Origin: Candidatus Woesearchaeota archaeon
GTDB taxonomy: Archaea; Nanobdellota; Nanobdellia; SCGC-AAA011-G17; GW2011-AR18
DNA length: 64,000 nucleotides
NCBI GenBank assembly: GCA_964497265.1
Contig: CAZCCK010000004.1
Coordinates: forward strand, 606 to 64,605
Direction of reading: 5' to 3'
Shown: positions 11,747 through 53,584 of the stretch, piece by piece
Layout: each line of letters opens with the position of its first letter
Position numbering within the stretch: position 1 is the first letter of the stretch
Position numbers and translations under genes: made by a program
Notes under the pieces: model-generated
Told to the model about the DNA's origin: nothing
Database searches by the model: none
Seen by the model: the letters and a program-made list of their open reading frames with translations, nothing else

Positions 11747-11750
11747 TGCG

Positions 11751-13115: not shown

Positions 13116-13152
13116 AAACCTTTTTATTTAGTATTCTTCTTTCTTCTTTTTA

Positions 13153-14073: not shown

Positions 14074-14096
14074 AAACGAAAAGATTTATTAATGAA

Positions 14097-15068
14097 ATGA
14101 TGCTAAAGCAAGTTGTGGAAAAAAAGATGAAGAAGGTGTATTTGTTTTCATTGTTTTCTATTCTCTTACTCTTAGCCGCATGTAGTTCTTCTAAACCTGC
14201 TGCTACAAAGGCGGGTTTTATTGGTGGAAAGGAAGGTCTTTCTCCTTCGTTGAATGTCTTATCTGGAAAAGCGAATGAAGTGTTAGATGCTAATCTTGAG
14301 GATTTTCAGATAGCTGTTAATTTGCAGAATAAAGGGGAGTATGCAGTTCAGCAAGATGAAGTGTTGGGTACCGTGACGGGTGTAGATTATAATTCGTTTT
14401 CTTTGACAACTCCTTCTTTAAGAAATGTTGAGCCTTTAGAGAAAGTAAGGTCTGATCAAAGTAAATCTGTTGCTGGCGGTCAGACTGTTTTATCTTTTCC
14501 TGCTAAGTTTAGAGATGATCTTCCTGTGGATCAAGTATATGATCTTGGTGTGAATGTATGTTATAAGTATCAAACTGGTGCTACTTCGAGTCTCTGTTTA
14601 AGAAGAGAAGCTACTAAGAGAGGAGAATCCTCTGATAAGTGTAGTGTGAATAATAATCCTGTTATTGGTTCTTCTGGTGCTCCGATTCAAGTAACGTCTA
14701 TTTCTCAAAGACCTACGGGCGCGAATGAGATTTCTTTTACGATTGCTATTGAGAACGTGGGTAAGGGAGATGTATATCCTCCTACGTTCATTCAGACAAA
14801 TCAGCAGTGTTTAGAGAAGAATGATGTGAAAAATAAATTCCAGATCGCGCTTTCTTTCCCTGAGAATAAGCCTGCGATTTCTTGTCCTGCTTTGGCAAAT
14901 GCAAATCAAGGAATGTTGCAGTTAATTCAAGGAAAAGCGACTTTAACCTGTAAGATCGATACGTCTCAAGAGCAGGATACGACTTTCTCAAGAAGTCCGA
15001 ATATTCAGTTAGATTATGTGTATAAGGATCTTGTTTCAACAAAAATCACCGTAAGGAATGCTGCTTAA
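14097..15068 (+). CDS. Lipoprotein-like secreted protein; paralog of 13153..14073
   Basis: Signal LLLAACSSS. Conserved blocks are shared with the previous ORF. Confidence 0.5.
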   Translation: MMLKQVVEKKMKKVYLFSLFSILLLLAACSSSKPAATKAGFIGGKEGLSPSLNVLSGKANEVLDANLEDFQIAVNLQNKGEYAVQQDEVLGTVTGVDYNSFSLTTPSLRNVEPLEKVRSDQSKSVAGGQTVLSFPAKFRDDLPVDQVYDLGVNVCYKYQTGATSSLCLRREATKRGESSDKCSVNNNPVIGSSGAPIQVTSISQRPTGANEISFTIAIENVGKGDVYPPTFIQTNQQCLEKNDVKNKFQIALSFPENKPAISCPALANANQGMLQLIQGKATLTCKIDTSQEQDTTFSRSPNIQLDYVYKDLVSTKITVRNAA

Positions 15069-36623: not shown

Positions 36624-37301
36624 ATGGAAGAGCGTTTAGAACAGCCTGAGCTTTCTTCAGAGATTGTGACTGTTGTTTTTGTTGATATTGTGGATTATAC
36701 GAATAAAACGAATCATTTGAACAGGCATTTGTTTATTGAATTGCATAATGCTTTTGATAGGATTTGTATTTCTTTATGTAAAAAGTATGGTGGTTCTGTG
36801 ATTAAAAAGATTGGTGATGCTTTTTTATTTGCTTTCAAATCCCCTACGAATGCTATTTTGTGTGGGATCCATTTGCAGAATAGTTTTGAGAGTTATAATA
36901 AAGAGCAGAAACCTCACGAACCGATTAAGATTAGAGTGGCAATTCATACCGGAGAAGTAATTTTAAGAGAGGGAGATATCTATGGTGATGCTGTGAATAT
37001 TGCTGCAAGGATTGAGGGTGTTGCTGGTCCGAATGAGATTGTGTTCAGTGGTGCTGTTTTTTTGGCGATGAATAAAAATGAGATTCCTTTTGTGCATGTT
37101 GGATTGTTTAAGTTAAAGGGGGTGAGTCAGCCTGTGAGGCTTTTTCGTGTGAAGGGTCATTATGATCGTATTTTGAGAAGGAAGAAGGTTTTAAGGAAAA
37201 GGTATAGGTTAGTTAAGCGTGTTATTATTACTATTATGGTCTTAAGTATTGTTGGAATAAGTGCTTATTTGATTTTGCCTTCTATTGGTTTTGTGTGGTA
37301 G
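36624..37301 (+). CDS. Class III adenylate/guanylate cyclase catalytic domain protein with a C-terminal TM anchor
   Basis: VTVVFVDIVDYT (metal-binding Asp), KKIGDAFLFAF, IRVAIHTGEV, YGDAVNIAARIE. Confidence 0.65.
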   Translation: MEERLEQPELSSEIVTVVFVDIVDYTNKTNHLNRHLFIELHNAFDRICISLCKKYGGSVIKKIGDAFLFAFKSPTNAILCGIHLQNSFESYNKEQKPHEPIKIRVAIHTGEVILREGDIYGDAVNIAARIEGVAGPNEIVFSGAVFLAMNKNEIPFVHVGLFKLKGVSQPVRLFRVKGHYDRILRRKKVLRKRYRLVKRVIITIMVLSIVGISAYLILPSIGFVW

Positions 37302-37560: not shown

Positions 37561-38170
37561 TTATTCAGAAACGGTTAAAGTATAAAGTTGTGATCTACTC
37601 AAGTTTGCGTTTGTTGCCGTAATATTAATGGTATAGTCTCCTGCTTGGTTGATATTAGCAACGGTAAGAGTAGAAGTAAAATCGGGGTTTGAAGCAGAAG
37701 GTATGAATGTGCAGTCTCCTGGACATCCTTCTGTGTTTAAGGTGACTTGCTCGCTTGTTCCTGAAAGAAGATTTGCGCTTACGTCTACTGAAGCGACGTT
37801 TTGTTCAAGTGAGATTGTATCCGAGCTCTGATTTAAAGTTAAATCGAAATCAAAGGGAGCTTGTGTTTCTTCTACAGTTAAAGTATATGTTGCAGATTTA
37901 CTGATGTTTTCATTGCTTGCGGTTAGATTGATCTGATACGTTCCAGGTGGAATCGTTGGATTTGGTTCTACTCTGAAAAGCGAAGTAAAGTTAGGGATTC
38001 CTAGAGGGGAGCTAAAGGAGCAGCTTGCGCCTGAGGGGCATCCTGAGAAGCTTAGGACAATGTTTTGGGTGATTCCTGAAAGCAAGGTAAGGAAGGTTGT
38101 GACGATTGAAGGTTGTTCTTCTGTTATTGTTTCGCTGCTTTGATTGACATCTAGATTAAAATCAAAAGCT
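37561..38170 (-). repeat. Two tandem protein-coding repeats of about 300 nt at the 3' end of the 974-aa surface protein gene
   Basis: Protein-level repeats covering aa 772-875 and 876-974, with conserved Cys pairs (GCPSGASCSF / GCPGDCTF). Confidence 0.5.
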
Positions 38171-40485
38171 GCAGGAGCGACGGTTGTGATTGGTTCGTCA
38201 AAGTGTACTGCCCAGTTGTAAAGTGGATTTCCGTATTGGCTCGGTGTGTTGTCGCTGTCTCTTAAGTTTCCACGTGCGGAAGTGCTGATAAAAGCACCTG
38301 GCAAGACATTCGCTGCTCTATATGCGTATTGGAAGCGTTGATTTGTTCCGTTTGGTATTTGATCTAAAGTAACCTGTACTGTGTCTGGTGAGATAATCTC
38401 CACTTTGGTGATGTTGATTTTTCTTCCTCCAGTATCATTATAAGTAAATCCGTAGTTTGTTTGGTATAAAACTAAGGCAGTATCAAAGACAAGTGGTGGT
38501 GAAGGTACATGGAATTTGGCTGTAATTATTTTTCCTTCTCTGGTTATTGTTTCTGGCATGAGTGGTTTCCAGTCTTCGTGGTTAAGTAAGACTTTTGTCA
38601 TAACTTTTCCATAGTATTCTCCTAGTTGTCGATAGCTTACGTTAATCAAGTGTACTGTGTCTTTGTAAGTAAGGAAGTAATTTGGTCCGACTAAGTAGAT
38701 TTTTCCTGGATTATGTTTTGCTGCTTCAAGTTGAGCGCGTGGTGAGGGGGGCATGCCTCCTTTGCTAAAGGAGCTGATTTGATCGATGAAGAAAGGAATG
38801 GTTTCATTTTGTCCGGTGATTGTGTTAATGTCTGTTTCATAGTCGTGTTGCCATTCAACAAGGTTTGCTTCATAGTCTGGGTTAAATCTATCATCTTCTC
38901 CGTGGAGAACAGCAATTGCTAAGAATCGATAATGTTGTTCCAAGTCTGATACACCCCAGCTTGCGTTTTTAACTTCGCTAAGACTATTTTGATAGGTTTG
39001 CGTTCCTTTTTTTATGACCGTATATTTTGATCCACCTAGCGCGCTTCGAGTAACGATCATGTTATAATCTTTGTTAGGGGTGGATCCTGTGATGAAGTTT
39101 CCCATTGCACTGTCAATACTTTCTGTAGTTGATTCTTTAAGCGGGATAAGTGGAAGATGAGGGTAGGTAGGGTAGTACCAAAGCATTTTGTTGTTATAAG
39201 GTTGGGTTGTGGTAAGTGCAGGAACTCCTTGTGCGCCTAAAGCTAAACTCTGTCCTGTAACAAGGATGTGATTGAAGTAGATTTTTTTGGGTGTAAGGGT
39301 GATTGTTTCTGATGCAGGTCCAGCGCCAATACTGTTTACTGCGCGTACTCGAAATTGGTAAGGTACATCATTATCCAGTCCTGTAATATTTGCGGTTTTG
39401 AGGGTGCTTACTGGATCGTTATATACCGTAAACTCTGCTCCATCTCTGCTGTATTCTATTTGATAGTCTCTTATAGGGCTTCCTCCTTGGGTGGTGGGAG
39501 TGGTCCAGAAGAGTTTAACTTTTTGATCAAAAACGCTTCCATTTAAGAAGAGTGGTTCGGAGGGGGTTAGTGCTAAAGTCGGATTTACTGAGAAGCTTTG
39601 TGGATCAGTAAAAGGTCCTAAAACTTTTCCGCCTACTTCTGTCCAACTATAAGTAAGATCGTTAGAGGGAATGCTTCCGTAAGTATCTAAAATTCTCCAG
39701 GTGAAATTAAAAATGTACTGATTTGGTTGAATTGTAACTGAGCTTTCATTTGCAAGAAGTTCAACATATTGATTACCATAAGAACTGTATTCCTTAAATC
39801 CTTTTGTAGGGGTCCATTGGAAGTATCCTCGAAAAGGTTTAGTTGGAGTATTTTTGAAATTAACAAGGAAACTCATTCCTTGGATGTTGCTAAGTTCTCC
39901 TTTATTGAGTACAAAGACCGCGCTTTGTTGGTCTTGTCCTGTTGAGACAAGATCTTGTTTTGCAAGGGTAAGACTGTTAAAGCTTGAATAAAGGGAAGGG
40001 GCTAAAACTGTTTGAAAACTTGTGTTTGTTTCTGTTAAGGCTACAGTTCTTCCGCTGCTTTCGTGCCAATAGTAAGAGAGAGGGTTAGTTGTATATGCTC
40101 CTTGGGTTGGGCTGATGGTCCAGGCAAAAGTGACGCTCGTCGTGTTTGTTTCGTTAGAATCTATTTTTTGAGAAAGTGATTTTACCGGTTCAATACTTGC
40201 GCTTCCATAGCCAGCTAGTTCTACAAATCCTGCGGAAGTCCAACGTAAATATCCTCTTGGAGAATTTTTATTGATCATTAATCTTATTTCATTAATCCCT
40301 GCAAGCTCTTGGGGAGTTGCGCATTGAATGGTAAGAGTGGCCTGTTGGGCATCATTGTCATCGGTTAAGATTTGGGGCTTTGATACAGATAGAGAAGTGT
40401 AGGTGCAGGTCGCTGAAACAATACTTATAACAAATAAAAATGAGAGCGATAAAAACAATAAAAATCGAAAGATTTTCAAATTCAT
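37561..40485 (-). CDS. Large (974 aa) secreted surface protein with a SASA/SGNH-like esterase core, a fibronectin type III domain and two C-terminal tandem repeats of about 100 aa
   Basis: Signal peptide. ILVTGQSLALG is like the GQSNM motif of sialate O-acetylesterase-like domains. FN3-like PIRDYQIEYSRDG...YQFRVRAVNSIG. C-terminal repeats FDFNLDVNQSS...YTLTVEE and FDFDLTLNQSS...YTLTVSE. Many NxS/T sequons. Confidence 0.5.
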   Translation of the reverse strand: MNLKIFRFLLFLSLSFLFVISIVSATCTYTSLSVSKPQILTDDNDAQQATLTIQCATPQELAGINEIRLMINKNSPRGYLRWTSAGFVELAGYGSASIEPVKSLSQKIDSNETNTTSVTFAWTISPTQGAYTTNPLSYYWHESSGRTVALTETNTSFQTVLAPSLYSSFNSLTLAKQDLVSTGQDQQSAVFVLNKGELSNIQGMSFLVNFKNTPTKPFRGYFQWTPTKGFKEYSSYGNQYVELLANESSVTIQPNQYIFNFTWRILDTYGSIPSNDLTYSWTEVGGKVLGPFTDPQSFSVNPTLALTPSEPLFLNGSVFDQKVKLFWTTPTTQGGSPIRDYQIEYSRDGAEFTVYNDPVSTLKTANITGLDNDVPYQFRVRAVNSIGAGPASETITLTPKKIYFNHILVTGQSLALGAQGVPALTTTQPYNNKMLWYYPTYPHLPLIPLKESTTESIDSAMGNFITGSTPNKDYNMIVTRSALGGSKYTVIKKGTQTYQNSLSEVKNASWGVSDLEQHYRFLAIAVLHGEDDRFNPDYEANLVEWQHDYETDINTITGQNETIPFFIDQISSFSKGGMPPSPRAQLEAAKHNPGKIYLVGPNYFLTYKDTVHLINVSYRQLGEYYGKVMTKVLLNHEDWKPLMPETITREGKIITAKFHVPSPPLVFDTALVLYQTNYGFTYNDTGGRKINITKVEIISPDTVQVTLDQIPNGTNQRFQYAYRAANVLPGAFISTSARGNLRDSDNTPSQYGNPLYNWAVHFDEPITTVAPAAFDFNLDVNQSSETITEEQPSIVTTFLTLLSGITQNIVLSFSGCPSGASCSFSSPLGIPNFTSLFRVEPNPTIPPGTYQINLTASNENISKSATYTLTVEETQAPFDFDLTLNQSSDTISLEQNVASVDVSANLLSGTSEQVTLNTEGCPGDCTFIPSASNPDFTSTLTVANINQAGDYTINITATNANLSRSQLYTLTVSE

Positions 40486-40626: not shown

Positions 40627-40718
40627 GGGCTCATGGTCTAGTGGCTATGACACAACCTTGACGTTCTCTTCGGAGATCAAAATGGTTGTAGTCGCAGGTT
40701 CGAGTCCTGCTGGGCCCA
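40627..40718 (+). tRNA. tRNA-Val (anticodon GAC) with a canonical 37/38 intron of about 19 nt (40664-40682)
   Basis: GGGCTCA-TG-GTCTAGTGGCTATGAC-A-CAACC-TTGACG[intron ttctcttcggagatcaaaa]T-GGTTG-TAGTC-GCAGG-TTCGAGT-CCTGC-TGGGCCC-A. The intron contains the hairpin TCTC-TTCG-GAGA. Confidence 0.7.
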
Positions 40719-40763: not shown

Positions 40764-41090
40764 ATGAAAAAATCTTTACTTGCCTTAAGCCTTGTGAGTT
40801 TGCTTCAAGCCTGCCATCCAGTAAAAAATCCAGTGGTTAATTTAGAATGTGGGAATACTGCCTATCAGAAAACAGAAAAAAGAGAAGGAGAGTCTGTTTT
40901 TGATTTTGCTACTCGTTTTTGCCAAGTTTTTGGTGCTGGAAATTACAGTAGGGGCGCGTTGTGTCATCCGATATTAGCGGAAATTAATTGTAATCTAGAA
41001 AATCAAGTGAGCTCTTTTAAGATTTATGAAAGGCCAAAAGAAGTTTGTTATACTCGTCCTGAAGAAGCGTGTTATTCACTTGTTTTTTGA
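40764..41090 (+). CDS. Small Cys-rich secreted/lipoprotein-like protein
   Basis: Signal with LLQAC. Six Cys in 108 aa. Confidence 0.4.
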   Translation: MKKSLLALSLVSLLQACHPVKNPVVNLECGNTAYQKTEKREGESVFDFATRFCQVFGAGNYSRGALCHPILAEINCNLENQVSSFKIYERPKEVCYTRPEEACYSLVF

Positions 41091-41148
41091 TAAATTTTAA
41101 AGCGTAATAATCGTTATATTTATATACCATTAAAGTGGTTTTTTACGA

Positions 41149-43299
41149 ATGGGGAAAAGGGGGCAGGTAACTGTTTTCGTAGTGTTAGGTTTAATTATTC
41201 TTATTCTTGCAGGTTCATTTCTTGCGTACCGTTATTTTGTTATAAATTCTAGTTTAGAGAGTACAAGACAAGAGTTGAGTAGAGTTCCGAGTCAGTTTCA
41301 GCCTGTTGCTGCTTATTTGGATGAGTGTACCCAAACTGTGGCGAGTGATGCATTGACTTTTGTAGGTTCAAGGGCGGGATATTTTACATTGCCGACAGAC
41401 CCGCTTCCTCCTTCTTCTATTAATCCTCTGCAAAGAAATTTAGAAGTTCTTCCAAATACGGATTTGAAAGTTCCTTTGTGGTTTAGAGAATCTAGTAATG
41501 GTATTCAAGAAGTGAATGTTCCTTCAAAAGCAGATGTGGAGAAAAATCTAGCGTTGTATGTAACAACTCACTTTCCAGAGTGTCTTGACAATTTATCTTC
41601 TTTTCAAGAAGAAGGGTATCAAATAATTTCTTCAGCCACTCAAGTAAATTCAAAAGTAACTGTAACTAAAGATGCCGTGGATGTTGTTGTTTCCTTTCCG
41701 ATGCAAGTTTCTTTCAAAGGAGCTAATTTTAAGTTGGATGGTTCTCTTGCTCATGTAGAGACGCAGTTCGGAGATTTATACAATTCCGCGGTCGAGATGT
41801 TAACAACTGAAAATCAAGGATTTTTCTTAGAAAATAAAACATTAGATATGCTTGTTGCGTATGATAAGGAGGTTCCGTATTCTGGTTCTGATCTTTCTTG
41901 TTCAGAAACAGTTTGGTCAAAAACAGAAGTAATTAAAAGATTCAAAGCGATTCTTTTTGAAAATACTGCTGCGATTCATGTGGTCGGTACAGATTTTAGT
42001 TTAGATAATGAAGGTCAAAAATATTTATTGTTTGATGCTTTAAAGAGTAAGCGGTCTGATGTTTCTATAAACTTAAGATATAATCCTTCGTGGCCTACGC
42101 TTGTGGATATTAGTCCTTCGCAAGGGGATGTTTTAAGATCAGATCCTATAACCAAGAATACGGGCGGATTATTAACAACGATTTTATCTTCTTACTTTTG
42201 TTTGAACGATCATCATTTTATTTATACGATAAAATATCCTGTTTTAATTTCGTTGACAGATAAGAATGGTTTTGTGTTCCAGTATGCTACAGAGGTAATT
42301 ATTGATAGAAATCTTGCCAGAGAAAATAGGATTGTTCCCTTAGATATTCCAGATACTCGTTCTTTATTATGCGAGAATGCGGCTAGTCCTCTAACGATCA
42401 ATACCTATTCTTTGGATCAGAATGAAGAACTTGTTCCTTTGAGTGGTGCTGATGTTTCGTTTAAGTGTTTCCCTGACACGTGTCCTTTGAAGGCTGTTGG
42501 GCAGGCGGCAAATAAGATGCAAGTTCTTGCTCCTCCTTGTGTGAATGGGGTTGTAGAAGTTTCCAAAAAGAATTTTTTCAATGGTAAATCTGTTGTATCT
42601 ACGAATACAGCTGAAGTACAAAATCTCAACATTGTTCTTGAGCCTTTGTATGAGAAGCATGTTCAAGTAAAAGTAATTGATAAGAAAACTGGTGAAATAC
42701 GTGATCCGTTTAGTTCAGAATTAATCTCTTTTAGTTTCAAGCATCAGAACGCGCGGTATAATGAATACTTCACGTATCAGAGCGAAGGTGCCTCTTGTGA
42801 GTTAGAGGATACGTGTGGTCCTGGTTTAGAATGTAAGAGGGGCGCATGCGTGTATCCTAGTTGTGAATCTAAAGAAGATTGTTCTCTAAATCAAGAGTGT
42901 GTCTCTAAAAAATGCGCTCCGATTAATACGATTCATTTGCTTGCGGGTGATTATGCTGTCGAGTCTTTCGTTTCTCGTACAAGTACGTGGCCGATTCAAA
43001 CGCAAAAGAAAACGGTGCAAAACTGCGTACAGACCACTGCAGATGGAGTGTTGGGTCTTTTCTTCACAAAAGAAAAATGTTTCACGACAGAGATTCCTTC
43101 CGTTGATTTTAAGAACGCGCTTGTGGGTGGAGGGAATTTCAATGTTACATTTGAGCGTAGTGCTTTAGCTTCAAAGAACGTTTTAACGTTGTATGTTCTT
43201 GCTGATGCCACTCCTGCGGATCTAGAAGGTTTTGCTAATATTCAGACAGATTTAAGTATCAATAAAGATAATCCGAACTTTAGGTATCCTCAGCTATGA
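41149..43299 (+). CDS. Pilin-like (class III signal) large secreted protein with a C-terminal Cys-rich EGF-like module
   Basis: N-terminus MGKRGQVTVFVVLGLIILILAGSFLAY (KRG then Q at +1, followed by a hydrophobic stretch). CELEDTCGPGLECKRGACVYPSCESKEDCSLNQECVSKKCAP. The stop overlaps the next start (ATGA). Confidence 0.5.
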   Translation: MGKRGQVTVFVVLGLIILILAGSFLAYRYFVINSSLESTRQELSRVPSQFQPVAAYLDECTQTVASDALTFVGSRAGYFTLPTDPLPPSSINPLQRNLEVLPNTDLKVPLWFRESSNGIQEVNVPSKADVEKNLALYVTTHFPECLDNLSSFQEEGYQIISSATQVNSKVTVTKDAVDVVVSFPMQVSFKGANFKLDGSLAHVETQFGDLYNSAVEMLTTENQGFFLENKTLDMLVAYDKEVPYSGSDLSCSETVWSKTEVIKRFKAILFENTAAIHVVGTDFSLDNEGQKYLLFDALKSKRSDVSINLRYNPSWPTLVDISPSQGDVLRSDPITKNTGGLLTTILSSYFCLNDHHFIYTIKYPVLISLTDKNGFVFQYATEVIIDRNLARENRIVPLDIPDTRSLLCENAASPLTINTYSLDQNEELVPLSGADVSFKCFPDTCPLKAVGQAANKMQVLAPPCVNGVVEVSKKNFFNGKSVVSTNTAEVQNLNIVLEPLYEKHVQVKVIDKKTGEIRDPFSSELISFSFKHQNARYNEYFTYQSEGASCELEDTCGPGLECKRGACVYPSCESKEDCSLNQECVSKKCAPINTIHLLAGDYAVESFVSRTSTWPIQTQKKTVQNCVQTTADGVLGLFFTKEKCFTTEIPSVDFKNALVGGGNFNVTFERSALASKNVLTLYVLADATPADLEGFANIQTDLSINKDNPNFRYPQL

Positions 43300-46200
43300 A
43301 AAAAAGTAGTGTGATTGCAGTGTTTTGTATGGTTTTGATAGTGACTCTTCCTTTGGTTGTTGCTCAAAGCCAATATTCTTCCTCTTCACAAAGTCTTCTT
43401 CCAGGATATCAACCTAATGAGGTTGCTTTTTTTCAGCAGCCTTCTTCTTTGGCTGATTTGCTTGGTGGTGCTTTTAGTCAGGCTCTTGGAACTGAGCAAG
43501 ATCTTGGAGAGGCGTTAGTTATTTACGCTGCGACTCCTGATCCTCCTTTTATTCGTGCTTCTGCTTTGGAGCAGCAGCCTTTGCCGATTTACATTCCTTT
43601 GAGAGCAACTGATTTTGGTTCGATTTTAGGAAAGGTTTCTGAGGATCCTTCGCAGCGTGATCCTTTTACGGGTTTTACTTCTTTGCCTCCTGTAAAAAGA
43701 ATGGTTGTGAAGTTAAATAGGACAAATCCTTTTGTGAACACAATAAAGTATATTCCTCCTGAGTCTGGATTTTCGAAAGATAATATGGGTTATCTTGTTG
43801 TTGTTTTAAACAGGTTAAGAAATGAAACGAGTTTACCTACTGCTCGTAGTCAGCAGACAAGTGTGTTTAATAATTCTCTTCCGCAGGATGTTGTGCCTAA
43901 TTTAGGCGCAGATACTCCTGTGATTGACTTGGATTTGACTGCTGAGATTTATTTGAATTTGCAAGAGAGTTCTTTGACAAATTTAGGTCAGAGGGATCTT
44001 GTTTTAAAACCAGAATCAGAAAATGATTTTTTGAAAAAATCTTCTAAAGAGGAGAATGCGTTTTATAATGATCGTGCGTATGTACGCGCTTCTGCGATTG
44101 GTCAAGATAGGGTTACGTTAAATGTTTATAATAAGGATTTGTTGCCTTTGACCTTTTTTTCTGCGCCAAATGCTCCTGCTGGATCAAAGGTTGCTTCTGT
44201 CTCCTTAACCACCAATCAAGTATCTAGTCCTGTAAGACTAGGTATTAGTTCCAATCCGTTGCAAGATAGTGTTGTGTTTAAATTAAACAATGTTGTGCTT
44301 CCGGCAAATAGTGTTTCTTATCAATTAAGTACGTCTTCTCAAACATTTGAAAGGGAAGCGAATGAAGGTTCCTTCTTGTATCCTGGTTCTCATTGGCAGA
44401 TTATAAGTGTTAAAAAAAATGAAAGAGACGCGACTGCTGAGCAAGTGAGAAAGCAAGGTTTTACTCTAGATAGTGCTTCGCGTAAAAAGGTAGAGCAAGC
44501 TCAGCCGGGTGATATTAAGATTGTTTCTTATCAAGTATTTTTGAAAAATAGCGCTACCGGTGAGTCTCGTTCTTTGGAAAGAGAGGTGGTTACAGGTAGT
44601 ACGTTTAATTTTGATTTTCCTCCTCTTGATGACGCGACTGCGTTAGCGTTAGAAGAGATGTATTGTCCTTCAGCGTTACAAAAGACTGCCAATGAAGATT
44701 ATGGGTGTGCTGCTGTAAGAAGCTTTAAGCAAGTGATTAATGATTACCCCGCGAGCGCTGAGGCGAAAAGTGCGTATGGGCAATTAGTTGATGTGTACGA
44801 TAATGATCTAATTAGTAATCCTGCTTGTAAGGTTATTGGTAAAGATCAAGTTTTAGATGAGGATAAATGTAGTTTGTTTTTGGATGATATGTTTTCGCTT
44901 GCGTATTATTATGCGTCGAAAGTGAAGGTTTCTAATCCTGTTTTATTGCAAAAGTTAAGAGATGGATTTGGGGGAAAAGGTGGTTTTGAGTTTTTGGAAG
45001 ATGAAGGTATTGGTTTTCAAGTAAAAAATGTAAAAATTGCGACAAATGATGATAAGGGCAAGTTTTCTCTTTCTGTGAATAGAAATCCTCTGGTTATGTT
45101 GCAAGTGGGTAATACTATTCCAAATTTGGTGGGAACGACAACGAAAGGAGATTTGTTTAAGTTTATTGTGCGTCAGATTAATCAGAATTCTGTTTTGGTG
45201 GAGAAAAAGAAAGTTGCGGATATTAATCTGCCTGTTGATGAAAAGAGTGTTTCTTTTGGTTCTTTAACTTTAATTTCTGGTCAGAATAATGTTTTATTAA
45301 AAAAAGGTGAAGAAAATCAGCAAGATGAAAATGTTTTATTAGATATTGGTTCTATTGAAGTAAATACGAGGGCTTCTATCTCTATTATTCCTGGTGCGAA
45401 TCGAGGATTAGCTCGTTCTTCGTTTAGAGTGCATATTCCTATTGAGCCTCGTCCTTTTCCAAATCTTGGTGAAACGTTGAAAGGTCATATTAATGCGACA
45501 AGAAAATTGGTTGCGGATCTTGATTCTGTAATTACAAAGATGGATACAGTGGTAAAGTCTTGGAAGAAATTATGTATTATTACCTTTGCTTTTGTAACCT
45601 TGAAAAGTTCGTTTTTAGGTGGAACAACAAGAACGCTCGCAAGAAGAGGTGTTGCTCAAGTCTACAAAAAGGATTGTGCTACTCAAGTAGCTGCGACTAA
45701 ATTTAGAAGTGTTGATGATTGTCTTGCAAGCAGAACAGATGAGTTAAGTAAGGATGTTGATGCGAATCAAAAAGCGATTGAGGCTGTACAGAGTCAGCTT
45801 AGCAAAGAGACCCCTGATCATCTGAAGATGTGCGGAGATGTTCCTTTCCAAGAGGCGCGTTTACTTGGAGCAACAATTCAAGATTGCCAAGAGTATTTAC
45901 GTTTGAAAGCTTTAAAATCTGAGCAAACGAGTGATTTGTTAAAAATAGAAGCAGACAAAAGTTTAACTGATTTAAAGTTTGAGCAGAAGAAAGATCTTAT
46001 TAGTCAAGCTTCGAAAGCTTATGAAGATAATAAAGATAAGTTGCCTTTCAAAGGAGATGACGCTGCTCAAAAAGGTATGCAGTATTACGCGAATTTGTTT
46101 GAGCAGGAGCAGCAAAAGAAGACGCCGATTCGTGAAGATGTGATTAATGTGCCTTCTTTGATTCCAAATGGAAAAGATACTGCTATTGCTATTCTAAATC

Positions 46201-48578
46201 CGGTCTTTGATCCTCAGACAAAGCAAATAAATCCTGATTCTATTAAGCCTACTGAGCTTAAACAGATTACTCAGTTGCAGTTTAAGATTTATGATGAAGG
46301 CGCTGATGAGGTTGTTAAGCAGGCAACAGTAAATTGTCTGCAAAATGTGAATTCGCAAGTCGCAGCTAAAAATACTCCTGCATACACGTTGCCTTGTGTT
46401 CAGAAGAGGTTGAACGCGTTAAATGTTCCTGATCCTTCTGGTTTGTATGTTAACCCAGTTTTTATTGGTGCTGCGAATCAGATAAGTGCGGATGCTGCTG
46501 TTGCGAGTGCTTTAAGTAATTATAAGGATCAGTTGTTAGTTGATCAAGGAAGTCTAGCAAAGAAAGGCGCTTTACCAAAGGCAAGTTTGTTTAAAGTTTA
46601 TTCTTCTCCGATTGTTCCTCGTGGAAACGAATTGAAGAGTTTAGATTATGCTTATTTACAAGAAGGCGCAACTCCAGGCGGTCTTGTCGCGCAATATAAT
46701 CCTGAGTCTGGAAAAACATTCTGTTATCCTACTGGTAAAAACGGAGAGTATATTTTAGTCTTGGAAAGATATCCTGAGAATGGAAGAGTGAGAACGTTTA
46801 GAGCGATGAATGTTGGGTTGAATGGGGTGATGGAGTGTGGTGGCTCTGGTGATGATGTTCTTGCGGATAAGGGAGACGAGTCTACGCTAAACTTACCTGA
46901 AAATGCGAAGTTAAAGAATGATTACCTTTCTATTGTTGAGCGTGCTCCTACATGCAAGAAAGATGGGGATCAAGCTGGTTTTGTTTTTAATACTAAGGGA
47001 AATAAGATTCCTGTTGTTTGTAGTATGAAGCAGTCTTTATTGAACGCTGCGTTGAGTAATCCTAAGTGTGTGGATGTAATGGAGCCTGAAGATTGTAAGA
47101 TTTTGTTTAATGTGTGTGATCCTGTGATGTGCCCTGCTTCTAGGTGTAATTTAGGTGGAAGGTATCAAGTTCCGGATGTCATCCAGTCTGGTATTGTTGG
47201 TTCTTTATTCTTGTGCGCTCCAAATATTAAGCAGGGTGTTGTTGTTCCAGTATGTTTGACTGGTGTGCTTGCCGGTTTAAAGAATATTAAGAGTTTGCTT
47301 GAAAGTTATGCTGATTGTTTGGAAGCGAATTTGAAAGATGGAAAGAATGTCGGCTTCTGCGATTATATTAGGAGTGTTGGTGTGTGTGAGTTAGTTTGGA
47401 GAGAGTCAACAAGTTTACTTGGAATTAAAGGTGGAGTGATTGATTACTTGTCGGATAAAGTCTTTTCTGAGCCTGAAGGTGGAGCAGAGTATTTAACGTT
47501 CCAGAATTCGTTGCAAAACGTTGGTTCTTCGTTTAATTATTTTACGACTGAATATTCGAATACGTACGTTGCCGCACTGAAAGGTTCTTCTACTGCTGAG
47601 GTTGGTTCTCAGATTTGTAGGCTTGGAGTGTATGGCAGGTTGCCTACTGCTGGTGAAGTGTTAGATAAATTATCTGAGCCTGAAGATCCCCCTCAATTCT
47701 TTGCGTTGTTAGATGAAGCTCCGTATACGCAGACTGTTGGCGAGTCTCCTCTTGCGCTAAATGTTCCTGCGAGTGCTAAAGAGCTTTCATTGTATAAAGT
47801 GTTTTATCATATCTATGCTGGAACTGGCTATGCGCAAGATCAAGCTGTTTTTGCAGAGCCGTTGAATCCTGCGACAAATCAGCCAAATAAAGCTGTAACG
47901 TACTCTGTTGTTTTAAGAAATAGGGAAGCGGGGTTACCAGATGTGTACATGACTTCGGAAGGAGAGTTTTTACAGAATCAAGCGACGATTGCGCGCGGTC
48001 AGTACGCTCAAAAAACAGTACAAAAGGTGGCGGTTCCTGGTTATAATGAGGTGTGTATTGTTTTGAATGGTAAGGAAGCGTGTGGTTTTGGAAAAGTAAG
48101 TTCTTCTTTTTCTTTGAATTATTTGAATGATCGTCTTGTTGAGTCTGATAGTAAGAAAAAGATTACTTCTAGCGAGCAGTGTGTTCCAAATGTTCCGACA
48201 AGTGGGGTTGCTTTAGGTAGTTTAGCTACCCCTGAGAAGTATGGTGTTACCAGTACGGGAATAAGTAGGGTTTGTAATCCTACGCCTCCGACAGCTGATC
48301 TTTCTAGATGGGCAGATGTAGGTTCTTGTGGAAAGGATAAGAATGGGATTGATCGTGGAACATGTTGGCTTGATAAAAATTCTGTGCGCGTTCAAGATCT
48401 TGAGGCAAAGAAAGAGATTAATGTTGCTTTGAAACAATCTGGTTTAGCTGAAAGTGAAAAATCAAAAGTTCTTTCTAGTGAGGACAGTGTAAAGAAGTTG
48501 TCTGAATTAAATACAAAGAGAGATAGCATTCTTGCTCAGTTGAGAGCTGCAGTGCAAAGATTGGCAGGTGCTCTATGA
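43296..48578 (+). CDS. Giant (1760 aa) secreted protein of unknown function
   Basis: Signal peptide MKKSSVIAVFCMVLIVTLPLVVAQS. Continuous ORF with no recognisable catalytic motif. Cys-rich segment near aa 1230-1330. Start and stop overlap the neighbouring genes. Confidence 0.55.
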   Translation: MKKSSVIAVFCMVLIVTLPLVVAQSQYSSSSQSLLPGYQPNEVAFFQQPSSLADLLGGAFSQALGTEQDLGEALVIYAATPDPPFIRASALEQQPLPIYIPLRATDFGSILGKVSEDPSQRDPFTGFTSLPPVKRMVVKLNRTNPFVNTIKYIPPESGFSKDNMGYLVVVLNRLRNETSLPTARSQQTSVFNNSLPQDVVPNLGADTPVIDLDLTAEIYLNLQESSLTNLGQRDLVLKPESENDFLKKSSKEENAFYNDRAYVRASAIGQDRVTLNVYNKDLLPLTFFSAPNAPAGSKVASVSLTTNQVSSPVRLGISSNPLQDSVVFKLNNVVLPANSVSYQLSTSSQTFEREANEGSFLYPGSHWQIISVKKNERDATAEQVRKQGFTLDSASRKKVEQAQPGDIKIVSYQVFLKNSATGESRSLEREVVTGSTFNFDFPPLDDATALALEEMYCPSALQKTANEDYGCAAVRSFKQVINDYPASAEAKSAYGQLVDVYDNDLISNPACKVIGKDQVLDEDKCSLFLDDMFSLAYYYASKVKVSNPVLLQKLRDGFGGKGGFEFLEDEGIGFQVKNVKIATNDDKGKFSLSVNRNPLVMLQVGNTIPNLVGTTTKGDLFKFIVRQINQNSVLVEKKKVADINLPVDEKSVSFGSLTLISGQNNVLLKKGEENQQDENVLLDIGSIEVNTRASISIIPGANRGLARSSFRVHIPIEPRPFPNLGETLKGHINATRKLVADLDSVITKMDTVVKSWKKLCIITFAFVTLKSSFLGGTTRTLARRGVAQVYKKDCATQVAATKFRSVDDCLASRTDELSKDVDANQKAIEAVQSQLSKETPDHLKMCGDVPFQEARLLGATIQDCQEYLRLKALKSEQTSDLLKIEADKSLTDLKFEQKKDLISQASKAYEDNKDKLPFKGDDAAQKGMQYYANLFEQEQQKKTPIREDVINVPSLIPNGKDTAIAILNPVFDPQTKQINPDSIKPTELKQITQLQFKIYDEGADEVVKQATVNCLQNVNSQVAAKNTPAYTLPCVQKRLNALNVPDPSGLYVNPVFIGAANQISADAAVASALSNYKDQLLVDQGSLAKKGALPKASLFKVYSSPIVPRGNELKSLDYAYLQEGATPGGLVAQYNPESGKTFCYPTGKNGEYILVLERYPENGRVRTFRAMNVGLNGVMECGGSGDDVLADKGDESTLNLPENAKLKNDYLSIVERAPTCKKDGDQAGFVFNTKGNKIPVVCSMKQSLLNAALSNPKCVDVMEPEDCKILFNVCDPVMCPASRCNLGGRYQVPDVIQSGIVGSLFLCAPNIKQGVVVPVCLTGVLAGLKNIKSLLESYADCLEANLKDGKNVGFCDYIRSVGVCELVWRESTSLLGIKGGVIDYLSDKVFSEPEGGAEYLTFQNSLQNVGSSFNYFTTEYSNTYVAALKGSSTAEVGSQICRLGVYGRLPTAGEVLDKLSEPEDPPQFFALLDEAPYTQTVGESPLALNVPASAKELSLYKVFYHIYAGTGYAQDQAVFAEPLNPATNQPNKAVTYSVVLRNREAGLPDVYMTSEGEFLQNQATIARGQYAQKTVQKVAVPGYNEVCIVLNGKEACGFGKVSSSFSLNYLNDRLVESDSKKKITSSEQCVPNVPTSGVALGSLATPEKYGVTSTGISRVCNPTPPTADLSRWADVGSCGKDKNGIDRGTCWLDKNSVRVQDLEAKKEINVALKQSGLAESEKSKVLSSEDSVKKLSELNTKRDSILAQLRAAVQRLAGAL

Positions 48579-51500
48579 AGAAAGCAGTTTTACCTTTAAT
48601 ATTCCTTCTTTTTATTTCTCTTGTAGTTGCTCAGTCTGATATTTGTGATAAACAGAATGTGAAGTGTTTAGAGAAAGATCCTGCGAGTGTTACATTAATT
48701 AATGATTTTCGTTCTTTAGAGTATGGTCAACTTGCTACGTTTTCTAGTGATAATGATGTTTCTGCTAAAGCGTTGTACGATCAAGCTTCTGGTTTTAAGG
48801 ACATTGCTCTTTTGAAAAGGCAGTATGAAGGTGTTGTTCACTCTAATAAGAAAGTAAGCCAAGTATTAAACGCTTTTTCTGAGAATGTTTTAAGCGCTCA
48901 TAAAGATTCTTCAGGTAATATAAGATTTGATTTTTTTGTCTCTTCTGCTGATGCTGCAACGTATGTCCTTAATTGGAATAATCAGGTGGTTGCGCAGGCG
49001 ACAGAGAACGATCTTCAAGGGAACAGTATTGTTTTTCTAGTAAGTGCTGACGAATTGCAAAAGGCAGGTGTAACAAGTCTCGATATTTCTGAATTTTCTA
49101 AGTTTAGTGTTTCAAAGGGAGATGAGCAAGGAAAGGTGTTTGCTCGTTATGGGGTGAGTAGTGTTTCTGTTCCTTCTCCTTTAATTTCTGCGGCTACGGT
49201 GGATCGTATTCCTGCAGATTCAATAAGTATTGGCTACGATCCTGCCAAACTTGCTCTTGAGATAAGCATTGCTCCTAATCAAGTCGGTTCAACAGCTCAT
49301 TTGTTAATTGATGATCAGGATATTCAGCTTAATGGTGGGATTGGTGTTGATGGGAAGTTTAAGGCAAAGGTGGACCTTTCCTATCCGAATCAGATAAAAT
49401 TAAAAGATGCGTTAATGAAAGATAGTTCTTTACTTTTCAGTGCGAAAATTAAGACAACTGACGCAACATTTACTCCTTCCGAGATTTATGTTACTGCTCC
49501 TAGACTTTTAGAATCGTCTGGAGTGATTCCTGTTGTTATTGCTCCTACTCCGCCTACAGCGCCTGAAAAGAAAGTGCAAGCTGAGCAAGTAGGGATTATT
49601 GATTTGACAAATACTGAAGAGTTAAAGCAGCAAGCAATTACAGCTTGTGCTCAAGAAGCTTTGGGAATTGAGTTAAGTAAACCCAATTCGAAACAGGTGG
49701 AAGTTATTCAGCAAAGAATGACGTCTGTTCAACCAGGTGCTTCTGATACGTTGGTTAATTTAGTTCGATCTGCTACAAATGATCCTTCAGAGCAGGTAAC
49801 TTTAGCAGGTATTATGTCCAAAGAGTCGCTAGCGAAGGTCGATATTGGTGACAGTTCTGCTGGAGCGCGTGGAGTGATGCAGTTTATTTCTCTTTCTGCT
49901 GTTGAGATGAAAGTTCCCTATAAGGATTCGTATGGCGATCGTTGTGCGAACAAAGCTGCTGCAAAAGTTACTGGACAGTGCGCATTATGTCTTCCTTCTG
50001 GATGTAATAATGGTGATGCTCGAAAGCAGCCGGATATAGAGATTGCTTCAGCGAATGTATTATTACAACAAAAGAAAAAAAGTTTACAAAAATGTATTAA
50101 AGATAGTACTCAAGGAAAGAATATTGTTGTTCCTCCAGAGGATTTATTTAAGTTTACCATTGCTGCTTACAATAGGGGTGAAGGAAATATTTGTCATGAT
50201 ATTGAACGGGTAATTAGTCAAGGTTCTCAAAAAGATGCTTCAAAAGTAACCTGGGAAGATGTTGCGGCCTTGCAATTATTTCCAAGTCAGACACGTTGTT
50301 ATGTTCCTGCAGTAATCTTTTTTATGTCTGCGCATAGAAATTTATTTAATGTAGAAACTATTGGTGTTTCAAAAGAAACTGTATCCACTCAGTTAGGATG
50401 TGCTGATTGTGGTTTAGATAACCAATGCAGTGCAGATGATTGTCGTCAAAGAGGGTGTATTGTTGTTTCTAAGATTATTGGTTCTTCTTGTGCAGATAAG
50501 CCTGCGGAGGTGGTTACTCCAACACCAAATCAAGATCCTTGTAATGCTTGTGGAAAAGAGTGGACTGCTTTTTGTAATAAAAAGAATTGTGATGAAATTA
50601 AGAGTTTGTTAGAATCTCAAGGAATCGGATCTTGCACATATACGCCTGGAGTAGTTGATAGTATTTTTGGTGGTTCTTGTTCTTCAGCTGTAACAGCAAA
50701 TCCTTTAGTGGGTGGTTGTACGAATGTGGACCGATCGAAAAAGATCTTTCCGCTCAGAAGTGTGCAGGTAACTTCTTGTTATGGAAAACGGATTTTAAAG
50801 GGAAGTGAGCAATGGCATCCGGGTATTGATTTTAATGCGCCTATAGGAACAGATGTTTTGGCGGTTGATGAGGGCACGGTTTCAAAGATTTGTGTGGGTA
50901 GTGCTAAGACTGATTGTGGTGGTTACGGGTACTATGTGAGAATCAAGCACCCTGATGGAAGTATTAGTCAATATAATCATCTTTCGCAGTCCTCAGTTTC
51001 TAACGGAGAAAATGTCAAACAAGGACAGGTTATTGCAAAAAGTGGAAATACGGGCGATGTTACAGGTCCCCATTTACATTTCAATATTTATTGTAGTGAA
51101 CAGGATCTAAATGCGGGTCAGGATTATAAGTTAGATCCATTTTATTATTTACCTGACATTCCTTTAGCGAAAATTAATCAAAATGCGTGTAGGCTTTCTC
51201 CGATCTTTAATCAGATTTACGCGGTTAATCCTCAATCTCCGCAAGTTTTAGCAGCGCAGCCTCTTGCAAATGAACCAAGTGATGACGCTCATCCTGCTGA
51301 TTTGAATGTAGAAATTCATCCTCAAGAAGTATATTTAGTGTGGTCTGAAGGAGAGTTCGAACCTCCAACGCTCGTGCCACAGTTAACAAGTAAGCCGGTT
51401 GTAGGTACAAGATATTTAGCTGATGCTTCTGATGGTTTTTATGTTGAGCAAGTTTCAAAAGACGGAATTTCGCTTTCGTTGTTTTCTACAGATGAGCAGG

Positions 51501-52219
51501 GTGTGGTCAATCAGGTACAGCCTTTAGCTTTTGCTAATCTGGTAAAAGCTTCTTTGAATGGTGCAGAATATGATTTTGTTCCTGTTGAGGAAAATAAGTT
51601 GTATGTGCAGCCAGAGGTAAAGCATGTGTTTGTTGCGAGTACTATTGAGCCTGGTTTTCCAGTGAGAGTAGTTGATCTAACTCAGAATTCAAAGATTACT
51701 GGCGCTGTTATTACTGAGCATTCTGAAAAAGATATTCCGGAAGTATTTGTATTTAAGCATGGAGAATCAAGAGAGGTAAATGCGATTAATTATGTTGTGT
51801 TGCATCATACTGGCACGTTTAGTGCTCAAGATACGATGAAAGTGCTCTCAAAGAGAGGGCTTTCTGTGCATTATGTTTTGGATAAGGATGGCGCTTTATA
51901 CCGACTTGTTCCAGAAGAGGAAATCGCGTGGCATGCAGCTGGAAGAAATGCTGATTCTATTGGTATTGAGATTGTGAATACGGGTAATGCTGAGGATAAG
52001 TATACGCAAGAGCAGTATAGGGTGATTAGTGTTCTTTTAGATTATTGGGCAAAGACGTATCCGAATTTTAAGAAAGATAATGAGCATGTGTTAGCGCATT
52101 ATGAGGTTTCTAGTCAGAAGTGGGATCCTTCTCCTAATTTTGATTGGAGTCAGATTGGGTTAGAAGGGCACGCTTTGGCGAGTTCTGATCAAGTTCCAAA
52201 AGGGGCAGGGTATGCATAA
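48575..52219 (+). CDS. Secreted multi-domain peptidoglycan hydrolase: SLT lytic transglycosylase, M23 (LytM) endopeptidase and Amidase_2/PGRP N-acetylmuramoyl-L-alanine amidase
   Basis: Signal peptide. SLT motif SKESLAKVDIGDSSAGARGVMQF (about 49800). M23 motifs HPGIDFNAPIGTDVLAVDEGTV, GYGYYVRIKHPDGSISQYNHLS and TGDVTGPHLHFNIY (about 50800-51160). Amidase_2 INYVVLHHTG...GLSVHYVLDKDGALYRLVPEEEIAWHAAGRNADSIGIEIVNTG...DPSPNFDW (about 51700-52150). Confidence 0.75.
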   Translation: MKKAVLPLIFLLFISLVVAQSDICDKQNVKCLEKDPASVTLINDFRSLEYGQLATFSSDNDVSAKALYDQASGFKDIALLKRQYEGVVHSNKKVSQVLNAFSENVLSAHKDSSGNIRFDFFVSSADAATYVLNWNNQVVAQATENDLQGNSIVFLVSADELQKAGVTSLDISEFSKFSVSKGDEQGKVFARYGVSSVSVPSPLISAATVDRIPADSISIGYDPAKLALEISIAPNQVGSTAHLLIDDQDIQLNGGIGVDGKFKAKVDLSYPNQIKLKDALMKDSSLLFSAKIKTTDATFTPSEIYVTAPRLLESSGVIPVVIAPTPPTAPEKKVQAEQVGIIDLTNTEELKQQAITACAQEALGIELSKPNSKQVEVIQQRMTSVQPGASDTLVNLVRSATNDPSEQVTLAGIMSKESLAKVDIGDSSAGARGVMQFISLSAVEMKVPYKDSYGDRCANKAAAKVTGQCALCLPSGCNNGDARKQPDIEIASANVLLQQKKKSLQKCIKDSTQGKNIVVPPEDLFKFTIAAYNRGEGNICHDIERVISQGSQKDASKVTWEDVAALQLFPSQTRCYVPAVIFFMSAHRNLFNVETIGVSKETVSTQLGCADCGLDNQCSADDCRQRGCIVVSKIIGSSCADKPAEVVTPTPNQDPCNACGKEWTAFCNKKNCDEIKSLLESQGIGSCTYTPGVVDSIFGGSCSSAVTANPLVGGCTNVDRSKKIFPLRSVQVTSCYGKRILKGSEQWHPGIDFNAPIGTDVLAVDEGTVSKICVGSAKTDCGGYGYYVRIKHPDGSISQYNHLSQSSVSNGENVKQGQVIAKSGNTGDVTGPHLHFNIYCSEQDLNAGQDYKLDPFYYLPDIPLAKINQNACRLSPIFNQIYAVNPQSPQVLAAQPLANEPSDDAHPADLNVEIHPQEVYLVWSEGEFEPPTLVPQLTSKPVVGTRYLADASDGFYVEQVSKDGISLSLFSTDEQGVVNQVQPLAFANLVKASLNGAEYDFVPVEENKLYVQPEVKHVFVASTIEPGFPVRVVDLTQNSKITGAVITEHSEKDIPEVFVFKHGESREVNAINYVVLHHTGTFSAQDTMKVLSKRGLSVHYVLDKDGALYRLVPEEEIAWHAAGRNADSIGIEIVNTGNAEDKYTQEQYRVISVLLDYWAKTYPNFKKDNEHVLAHYEVSSQKWDPSPNFDWSQIGLEGHALASSDQVPKGAGYA

Positions 52220-52940
52220 GAATTTTATTCTAGATCTTATTTTTACGGTTTTATTGATTTCTCTTCTTATTTTTGTAAGAACAGAATCTAAAAGTTATTT
52301 TCAGCAAGTTCAGGGCTTTTCAGAAGATATTGCACATATTGAGAATGGGCTGTCTTCGAATGAGTTTACAGAGCAAGATACGTTAAACGCAGACCAAACG
52401 TTAACAAGTTTGAATAAGATCTTAACAAAATCTATTTTTTTAAATGTTCTTCTTCTACCTTTAGTTATTTTTTTGTTGTGGGTTGTCTTTCAAGGTCTGA
52501 TTTGGAGGTCTTTAACAAAGATGAGCTTAAGCAAATTTGCTTTAATTTCAATTATTCCAGTAGTTCTTTTCTTTTCTTTAATTTTATATTTTTTAGAATA
52601 TGTTTCTTTTGTTTTTTTTAAAGATACAACTGCTTCTTTAGTGGTTCTAATCTTAATGGTTCTCTTATTATTCATTGTCAATTATTTTTATTTAATCCTT
52701 GTTTTAAAACCAAATCTAAAAATGAAAGAAATTTTTAAAATAGCTAAGACTAAATTCTCTAAATTAATTGTTCCTTATTTAATTTTAAGTCTAACTGCCT
52801 TTATCTATTTAATTTTAGGCGTTTTAATTTTTATTTTTAGTTATGTTGGTACTTCTTTCATCATTCCGGCTTTACTTTTAGCGCTTCTTTTAATTCTCTT
52901 GCAGTACGAAAGAAAGTGGTTGCTTAAGCTAGCTTTTTAA
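52212..52940 (+). CDS. Polytopic membrane protein (about 6 TM) ending the giant-protein operon
   Basis: The start overlaps the previous stop. Mostly hydrophobic helices. Confidence 0.45.
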   Translation: MHKNFILDLIFTVLLISLLIFVRTESKSYFQQVQGFSEDIAHIENGLSSNEFTEQDTLNADQTLTSLNKILTKSIFLNVLLLPLVIFLLWVVFQGLIWRSLTKMSLSKFALISIIPVVLFFSLILYFLEYVSFVFFKDTTASLVVLILMVLLLFIVNYFYLILVLKPNLKMKEIFKIAKTKFSKLIVPYLILSLTAFIYLILGVLIFIFSYVGTSFIIPALLLALLLILLQYERKWLLKLAF

Positions 52941-52991: not shown

Positions 52992-53204
52992 ATGGAGATA
53001 GAAAGTAAAATCAGAAAGTGGGGAAATTCGTACGGGGTAATCCTTCCAAAGCAGTTTCTCGAATCAGAACACTTGCAAGAGGAAGATGTAGTAAAGATTA
53101 ATGTTACTGCTAAAAAAGCGGATATTGCTAAACTCCGAGGGTTATGGAAGTTTAAGCGTCCAATTAAAGAAATCATGAAAGAAATCAAGGAAGGATATGA
53201 GTAG
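52992..53204 (+). CDS. AbrB/MazE/SpoVT-type antitoxin (VapB-like)
   Basis: KIRKWGNSYGVILPKQFLE looped-hinge-helix motif. 70 aa. Its stop abuts the next start. Confidence 0.6.
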   Translation: MEIESKIRKWGNSYGVILPKQFLESEHLQEEDVVKINVTAKKADIAKLRGLWKFKRPIKEIMKEIKEGYE

Positions 53205-53584
53205 TGTCCGAATTTTTTTATGATAGTTATGCGATTATAGAATTTATAAATAATAATCCTAGATTTGTCCGCTACTTTACTGAAAATGGGGGTGTGACTA
53301 CGTTATACAATGTCTTAGAAGTTTATTATGCGATTATAAAAGAAGGTGGTGCTCATGAAGCAAAGAAAGTGCTGGAGTTATTAAGGCCGATAATTGTATA
53401 TCCTGATATAAGTTATGTTGAAGAGTCTATGAAGTTTAGGTTGGAGAATAAAGAAAAAAAGTTATCCTACGCTGATTGTTTGGGGTATATAATCGCTAAA
53501 AGGAAGAAAATAAAATTTCTTACTGGAGATGAGGGGTTTAGACATTTAGCCAACGTGGAATTTGTTAAGGCAAATGAGATCTAA
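53204..53584 (+). CDS. PIN-domain toxin (VapC-like)
   Basis: N-terminal FFYDSYAIIE (first Asp), SYADCLGYIIA and LTGDEGF acidic residues. 126 aa, paired with the AbrB-like gene. Confidence 0.55.
   Translation: MSEFFYDSYAIIEFINNNPRFVRYFTENGGVTTLYNVLEVYYAIIKEGGAHEAKKVLELLRPIIVYPDISYVEESMKFRLENKEKKLSYADCLGYIIAKRKKIKFLTGDEGFRHLANVEFVKANEI

Follow-up and report, generated by a model that had tools for sequence, protein, structure and literature searches.

The 64,000-nucleotide stretch of DNA considered here (hereafter, the window; positions 606 to 64,605 of contig CAZCCK010000004.1, assembly GCA_964497265.1, assigned to a Candidatus Woesearchaeota archaeon) contains a gene encoding a protein of 1760 amino acids (aa; hereafter, the giant). 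It is a member of a large protein family that is inherited vertically in Woesearchaeota and Pacearchaeota. Because the giant contains neither a catalytic domain nor a membrane anchor, is always paired with the product of the gene directly upstream (hereafter, 'up'), and is repeatedly joined to lytic enzymes, it may well serve as the non-catalytic scaffold of a surface module that presents such enzymes to bacterial hosts. The genes involved and their parts are listed in Table 1.

An earlier reading of the window, made from the sequence alone (hereafter, the sequence-only reading), had described the giant as an ORFan. This description did not survive database searches. A first, word-indexed search returned five homologs, four of which were full-length and shared 32-52% identity with the giant, and comparison of a profile covering aa 690-1757 with 1.84 billion representatives (50% identity level) returned 1214 proteins, 994 of these at E<=1e-30. 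Word-indexed profile searches added few sequences and no informative names. The 150 relatives listed of the 1214 measured 1189-2964 aa, with most being longer than 1600 aa. When each species was represented by a single genome, scanning yielded 530 confirmed loci and, among the 80 of these that were listed, all but one came from metagenome-assembled genomes (MAGs) labeled as Woesearchaeota, Pacearchaeota, Nanoarchaeia, Nanoarchaeota or unclassified archaeon. The exception, a 379 kb contig labeled 'Candidatus Paceibacterota bacterium' (L080; DAOTCN010000002.1), carries the usual pair of 'up' and giant genes, together with two short 'up'-like open reading frames (ORFs) downstream. It is probably a mislabeled archaeal MAG; transfer of the gene pair to a candidate phyla radiation (CPR) bacterium may be the alternative explanation. 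A viral origin of the giant was rejected, as no relatives were detected in IMG/VR contigs. Across loci, the module is often found near the genes encoding S3Ae, LSM, S8e and TFIIB, and the recurrence of this neighborhood argues for vertical inheritance of the module as a core feature of the chromosome. The DNA of the window is itself archaeal, as reflected in the presence of S3Ae, S13/S15 with the archaeal/eukaryotic N-terminal domain and TFIIB, and in a GC content of ~37%.

What the sequence-only reading had said of the gene itself was largely confirmed. The 5.3-kb reading frame is uninterrupted, containing one in-frame stop codon, whereas the two alternative frames contain 122 and 201, and its composition is coding-like, with GC fractions of 0.49, 0.39 and 0.29 at codon positions 1, 2 and 3, respectively. 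The signal peptide is seen as a Sec-type N-terminus, MKKSSVIAVFCMVLIVTLPLVVA/QS, which ends in VVA/QS and corresponds to aa 1-23, as assigned by eye and from hydropathy rather than by a signal-peptide predictor. The class III (pilin-like) signal motif was not found in the giant and belongs instead to 'up'. Beyond the signal peptide, hydropathy analysis revealed no strong transmembrane segment; hydrophobicity peaks just twice there, weakly in both cases (aa 758-777 and aa 1299-1335; Kyte-Doolittle score of ~1.4-1.5). Given a Sec signal followed by only these two weak peaks, the mature giant is most likely soluble and extracellular. The protein was also correctly said to lack a repeat motif, since no internal repeats were detected upon comparison of the giant with itself by BLASTP; at the DNA level, Tandem Repeats Finder reported a single trivial two-copy repeat of 24 nt.

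The absence of any recognizable domain, likewise noted from the sequence, stands at the levels of both sequence and fold. Searches of Pfam, NCBIfam, PHROGs and PDB sequences returned zero matches to the giant, including when permissive thresholds and family profiles were used. In Pfam, nothing was detected at E<=0.1 nor at E<=1, and thus no SLT or other catalytic domain is present, while neither the giant sequence alone nor any of three profiles retrieved more than noise from PDB sequences. AlphaFold2 models generated from family alignments showed a predicted local distance difference test score (pLDDT) of 78.9 and a predicted template modeling score (pTM) of 0.62 for aa 1-700, with the corresponding values for aa 681-1760 being 70 and 0.55. 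When both models were compared with the PDB and the C-terminal model was also compared with BFVD using Foldseek, nothing was found at E<=0.001. The best sub-threshold matches were to generic Ig-like sandwiches (ApaG and MD-2) and to CorA, with TM-scores of ~0.1, and no fold likeness to fusexins (HAP2/Fsx1) or to any other membrane fusogen or pore former of solved structure was seen. More than 1500 conserved residues of the core of the giant are left without detectable structural relatives.

Conservation along the giant is uneven. It is high in aa 681-840, 1121-1200, 1241-1480 and 1561-1700, moderate in aa 1-680 and low in aa 841-1120. The Cys-dense segment to which the sequence-only reading had drawn attention (aa 1230-1330) is real and comprises mostly invariant Cys residues across 46-100 homologs; the conserved region is, however, far wider than that segment. 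Of the 33 Cys residues of the giant, 12 lie within aa 1201-1400, and ~20 are invariant or nearly invariant in alignments of 46-100 sequences. The core motif reads C.DVM.PEDCK.LFN.CDPV.CP.SRC.LGG...SGI.GS..LC.PN...P.CLTG..AG...DCL...G.CD.I.S...CE..W and is predicted by AlphaFold2 to be helical, with pLDDT values of ~56-86 for the block. It spans the glycine-rich hydrophobic helices of aa 1295-1335, where one of the hydropathy peaks is found.

Examination of the genes surrounding that encoding the giant revealed four successive genes that overlap by 4, 4 and 8 nt and which form one translationally coupled operon, whose products are 'up', the giant, a secreted enzyme that varies between loci and a polytopic membrane protein of ~250 aa (hereafter, 'dn'). 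Wherever the upstream DNA was long enough to tell (66 of 66 loci), the gene immediately preceding the giant encodes an 'up' homolog, and most of these pairs overlap by 4 nt (ATGA). Past its signal, 'up' comprises a Cys-containing globular part of ~600-650 aa. Members of the 'up' family measure ~650 aa, and the N-terminus of 63 of 69 homologs contains [KR][GA][QAE] followed by a hydrophobic stretch (alignment A3). As such, 'up', and not the giant, resembles archaeal class III signal-peptide proteins in having a [KR]G-Q motif and then a hydrophobic helix; it differs from them in that its globular domain is without known homolog. No match to 'up' was found in Pfam, NCBIfam, PHROGs or the PDB, and its homologs are named hypothetical in every source. 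At the other end of the operon, at least 18 of the 36 loci in which the available DNA extended far enough have a detectable 'dn' homolog downstream, a count that is a lower bound obtained with a hidden Markov model (HMM) built from three sequences (alignment A4). Searches of Pfam, NCBIfam and PHROGs returned no match to 'dn'.

The gene following that encoding the giant, with an ATGA overlap, indeed encodes a murein hydrolase, as the sequence-only reading had noted. SLT, M23 and Amidase_2 domains act on bacterial murein, a polymer that archaea lack. The genomic context and C-terminal tails of relatives of the giant were assessed in 84 fetched loci. Tails of 200-1911 aa are borne by the giants of 60 of these. 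In Pfam searches of the tails, SLT was detected in eight and Amidase_3 in four, with Phage_lysozyme2, DPBB_1, Peptidase_M15_4, NLPC_P60, Glucosaminidase and GH3 each being encountered in a single case. With an iterated SLT HMM, SLT was detected in 26 giants matching the core profile, namely in the C-terminal tail of 18 and as an N-terminal insertion in eight (L028, L029, L030, L032, L033, L043 and L047, at giant aa ~270-610, and P0152, at aa 650-795). As SLT is N-terminal in some giants and C-terminal in others, fusion occurred at no fewer than two independent positions.

The separate hydrolase of the window corresponds to what is elsewhere a fused tail, since the tails of two giants are homologous to parts of it. 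The tail of P0015 matches the Amidase_2 domain of the window hydrolase (E 3.5e-33), while that of P0021 reproduces the order of the window protein, with the module found at aa 30-99 of the hydrolase preceding its SLT region. The split form, in which the giant is accompanied by an enzyme that is secreted separately and bears a signal peptide, is seen again in ~17 other loci and for this reason is not a frameshift artefact; nor was any problem of assembly noted. The position between the giant and 'dn' (hereafter, the slot) is taken elsewhere by proteins containing SLT together with Peptidase_M15_4, Amidase_2, SLT alone or an Exo_endo_phos nuclease domain, or by proteins with no Pfam match. One helical module of ~80 aa is common to slot proteins and, in three giants, also occurs in the tail immediately past the conserved core. 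In locus L019 (5603-8929), the slot holds an Exo_endo_phos nuclease-type protein with the 80-aa module. Large secreted slot proteins with no Pfam match are encoded in L016 (11441-12880) and L020 (10009-14835), both with the 80-aa module, and in L040 (9955-12564), where the module was not detected. Because nuclease-type proteins and proteins without Pfam match fill the slot, the cargo is not limited to wall hydrolases.

The distribution of N-X-S/T sequons was also considered. In the giant family (P0001-P0155), 1017 sequons were observed as compared to 2588 expected, corresponding to a ratio of 0.39, and in the window hydrolase none was found where 8.1 were expected. In other ORFs of the window, sequons occur at 1.2 times expectation, and they are enriched in one secreted protein encoded by 37561..40485 (20 as compared to 13.5 expected). 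Together with the signal peptide and the ~20 invariant Cys residues, the family-wide depletion of sequons would count among the hallmarks of an extracellular protein.

In the mechanism that is proposed, the giant would be exported by Sec and stabilized by up to ~16 disulfides. Itself lacking a membrane anchor, it would be kept at the archaeal surface in a putative complex with the pilin-like 'up', with 'dn' or with both. There, the giant would carry lytic enzymes, either fused to it or docked via the common ~80-aa helical module, a putative docking element. At the site of contact, these enzymes would break down murein in the wall of a bacterium serving as host or prey, permitting close attachment or feeding. 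The sequence-only reading had guessed that giant proteins of this sort in small-genome archaea are often host-interaction factors; this guess now gains comparative support from the hydrolase fusions, the homologous tails and the variable slot for secreted enzymes, the function itself being what we infer.

Several observations weigh against assigning the giant the role of scaffold for lytic enzymes, and confidence in this assignment is evenly balanced. A peptidoglycan hydrolase is fused or adjacent to the giant in a minority of the 84 loci, with SLT being found in ~22, and the tails of ~40 giants have no Pfam match; since hydrolases are found in a minority of loci, the core must have a role that is independent of them. 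In Foldseek comparisons with the PDB and BFVD, the core resembled no adhesin, secretion component or pore former. The AlphaFold2 models are of moderate confidence, and the conserved stretch of aa 1368-1450 is poorly modeled. Finally, the neighborhood of S3Ae, LSM, S8e and TFIIB genes suits a basic role in the cell envelope at least equally well.

Indeed, the giant and 'up' could be structural parts of the envelope of the archaeon itself, for instance a two-component S-layer-like or surface scaffold akin to an anchor with a canopy, with hydrolases having been added in some lineages solely to scavenge debris of bacterial walls. That the pair is near-universal and strictly syntenic, that in many genomes it lies among ribosomal and transcription genes and was found in no viral contig, that both proteins are secreted or membrane-anchored, and that most members of the giant family come without a recognizable hydrolase are all as expected of envelope components. 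However, S-layer proteins evolve fast, and conservation as strong as that of the giant, with its ~20 invariant Cys residues and long invariant motifs, is atypical of them. Moreover, the giant matches no known S-layer family in Pfam or NCBIfam and no S-layer fold in Foldseek searches of the PDB, and the independent fusions to lytic domains at two positions argue for a direct functional link to these enzymes. Archaeal S-layer proteins are also usually glycosylated, and the depletion of sequons in the giant family, set beside their enrichment in another secreted protein of the window, offers weak evidence in the same direction. On balance, an envelope role of this kind is considered possible and rather unlikely.

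More improbable still is that the giant is itself a membrane-active or pore-forming delivery protein, akin to polymorphic toxins, with the Gly-rich helices of aa 1295-1335 inserting into the host membrane once the wall has been breached. In favor of such a role, a conserved body is combined with variable enzymes, including a nuclease, at the C-terminus or encoded downstream, invariant hydrophobic Gly-rich helices are found within a disulfide-rich domain, and conserved aa 1368-1450 are modeled with low confidence, as might be the case for a segment undergoing conformational change. Yet, the giant is unlike the pore formers, fusogens and toxin-delivery proteins of the PDB or BFVD, its hydrophobic peaks are weak (Kyte-Doolittle score of ~1.4) and include charged or polar residues, and a Pfam search and motif scan detected no immunity-like gene or dedicated secretion ATPase in the operon. 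Lastly, the possibility of an orphan gene or an artefact, whether a spurious ORF, a misassembly or a frameshift product split from the hydrolase, finds its sole support in the lack of any match in domain libraries and is refuted by the hundreds of full-length homologs and 530 loci, by normal coding statistics, by the recurrence in ~17 loci of the same split, the downstream enzyme there having a signal peptide of its own, and by the absence from the giant of repeats able to collapse an assembly.

Returning to the giant as a scaffold for lytic enzymes, a bolder and decidedly tentative extension is that 'up', the giant and 'dn' form an undescribed, lineage-defining surface machine of new folds that is the basis for living or preying on bacteria, with the giant both presenting lytic enzymes and engaging or penetrating the bacterial membrane via its disulfide-rich hydrophobic domain. 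The Woesearchaeota and Pacearchaeota represent a large share of archaeal diversity, and no cultured member was encountered in the literature searched, where the large murein transglycosylase proteins are the sole molecular hint of a bacterial host. In these lineages, the wall enzymes appear as accessories of a larger, strictly conserved module comprising 'up', a Cys-rich core of ~1700 aa, 'dn' and a variable enzyme slot, and the giant family could be used as a marker in determining which lineages attack bacteria.

Table 1. Features of the operon encoding the giant and its partners. Positions are those of the window or, where marked aa, of the protein named.
Feature	Position	Strand	Description
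Candidate archaeal TATA-like box	41115..41128	+	ttatatttatatac; ~20-35 nt upstream of 'up', the operon's first gene; identified by eye
'up'	41149..43299	+	716 aa; class III (type IV pilin-like) signal MGKRGQ-VTVFVVLGLIILIL
Giant	43296..48578	+	1760 aa; ATG start; second gene of the operon
Giant, N-terminal region	aa ~70-700		Beta-rich and helical; more variable
Giant, long-helix region	aa 681-840		Conserved
Giant, linker	aa 841-1120		Variable
Giant, Cys-rich C-terminal region	aa 1121-1700		Conserved
Giant, Cys-rich core motif	47067..47390	+	aa 1258-1365; invariant columns in alignments A1, A5, A6 and A7
Giant, terminal helix	aa 1728-1759
Murein hydrolase	48575..52219	+	1214 aa; own signal peptide
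Hydrolase, ~80-aa module	aa 29-102
Hydrolase, SLT	aa ~390-590		Domains by Pfam; NCBIfam, PHROGs
Hydrolase, Peptidase_M23	aa 748-846		As above
Hydrolase, Amidase_2	aa 1069-1187		As above
'dn'	52212..52940	+	242 aa; polytopic membrane protein with ~6 hydrophobic helices; 8-nt overlap with the hydrolase gene

Upstream of the operon lies a tRNA gene (40627-40718, + strand; 92 nt) that scored 53 bits against the Rfam tRNA model and for which ARAGORN gave no anticodon; it probably contains an archaeal intron. Between this gene and the operon is a 108-aa ORF (40764..41090, + strand) whose Cys-rich product bears a lipobox-like LLQAC motif as well as a signal peptide. This ORF was rejected as part of the module, no homolog having been found in 84 related loci. 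Adjoining the operon in divergent orientation is the gene for the sequon-enriched secreted protein (37561-40485, - strand; 974 aa), which shows matches to fn3, weak matches to Ig-like domains and a sub-threshold match to SASA (sialate O-acetylesterase-like), and which may be another surface or host-glycan enzyme. Further upstream, an ORF at 36624-37301 (+ strand) encodes an adenylate/guanylate cyclase catalytic domain (Pfam E 1.2e-19), here in a small-genome archaeon.

Downstream of the module, a small antitoxin-like ORF (52992-53204, + strand) is followed by one encoding a PIN-domain toxin (53204-53584, + strand), and a ribbon-helix-helix (RHH) and PIN pair is found at a similar position in another locus (L001, 15269-15893). 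Elsewhere in the window, two further ORFs with class III motifs (10550-11746 and 11751-13115, + strand; FKKGQ... and KGKRGQ...) are followed by two encoding proteins with lipobox-like N-termini (13153-14073 and 14097-15068, + strand; LLLAAC), such that the region spanning 10550-15068 looks like a second surface-protein cluster.

The locus was finally compared with known systems. In loci of Gram-positive conjugation and type IV secretion systems (T4SS; VirB1/PrgK type), multi-domain hydrolases combining SLT with a peptidase lie beside genes for large membrane or surface proteins. The window locus is alike in pairing a multi-domain hydrolase with a large surface protein and differs in being chromosomal and syntenic with housekeeping genes. 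A reading of the locus as a T4SS or conjugation system was rejected, as no VirB4/VirD4-type ATPase or T4SS component was detected by Pfam in the operon or among ORFs located from 27 kb onward. None of the Walker A motifs present in other parts of the window lies in or beside the operon, and a motif scan of the other ORFs of the window, the sole scan applied to those before 27 kb, flagged no secretion ATPase.

Bacterial systems of the polymorphic toxin and contact-dependent kinds, including CdiA and Rhs, feature a giant conserved body carrying variable enzymatic modules that are used against neighboring cells. By analogy, the giant is alike in its layout of body and variable tip, with the tip being either C-terminal or encoded just downstream. 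It differs from these proteins in showing no likeness in sequence or fold and in a cargo that consists mostly of wall hydrolases, rather than cytoplasmic toxins. Pfam searches and self-BLASTP detected no TPS, FHA, Rhs repeats, pre-toxin motif, dedicated transporter or immunity gene at the operon.

The closest comparison is with the large murein transglycosylase proteins of Woesearchaeota and Pacearchaeota described as fam00969 (Castelle et al., 2021; PMC8204110), one of 51 families specific to these two lineages, most of which are of unknown function. PMC9723730 and PMC10936187 note the same large SLT-bearing proteins, and the inference that such proteins serve to attack a host has already been published (PMC8204110 and PMC9723730). 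The available parts of these papers describe the SLT domain and protein size only, with no account of the core, 'up', 'dn', the 80-aa module, the enzyme slot or fission, and a 2026 preprint on complete Nanobdellota genomes contains no mention of giant-family proteins. The SLT-bearing relatives of the giant are very probably the proteins of those papers. The window giant differs from the published proteins in lacking SLT (GH23), their defining feature, which is here found on the separate protein encoded downstream. By contrast, the giant family is alike in lineages, in giant size, in secretion and in its link to SLT, and the window giant shares its non-catalytic body with the SLT-bearing giants of the same lineages.

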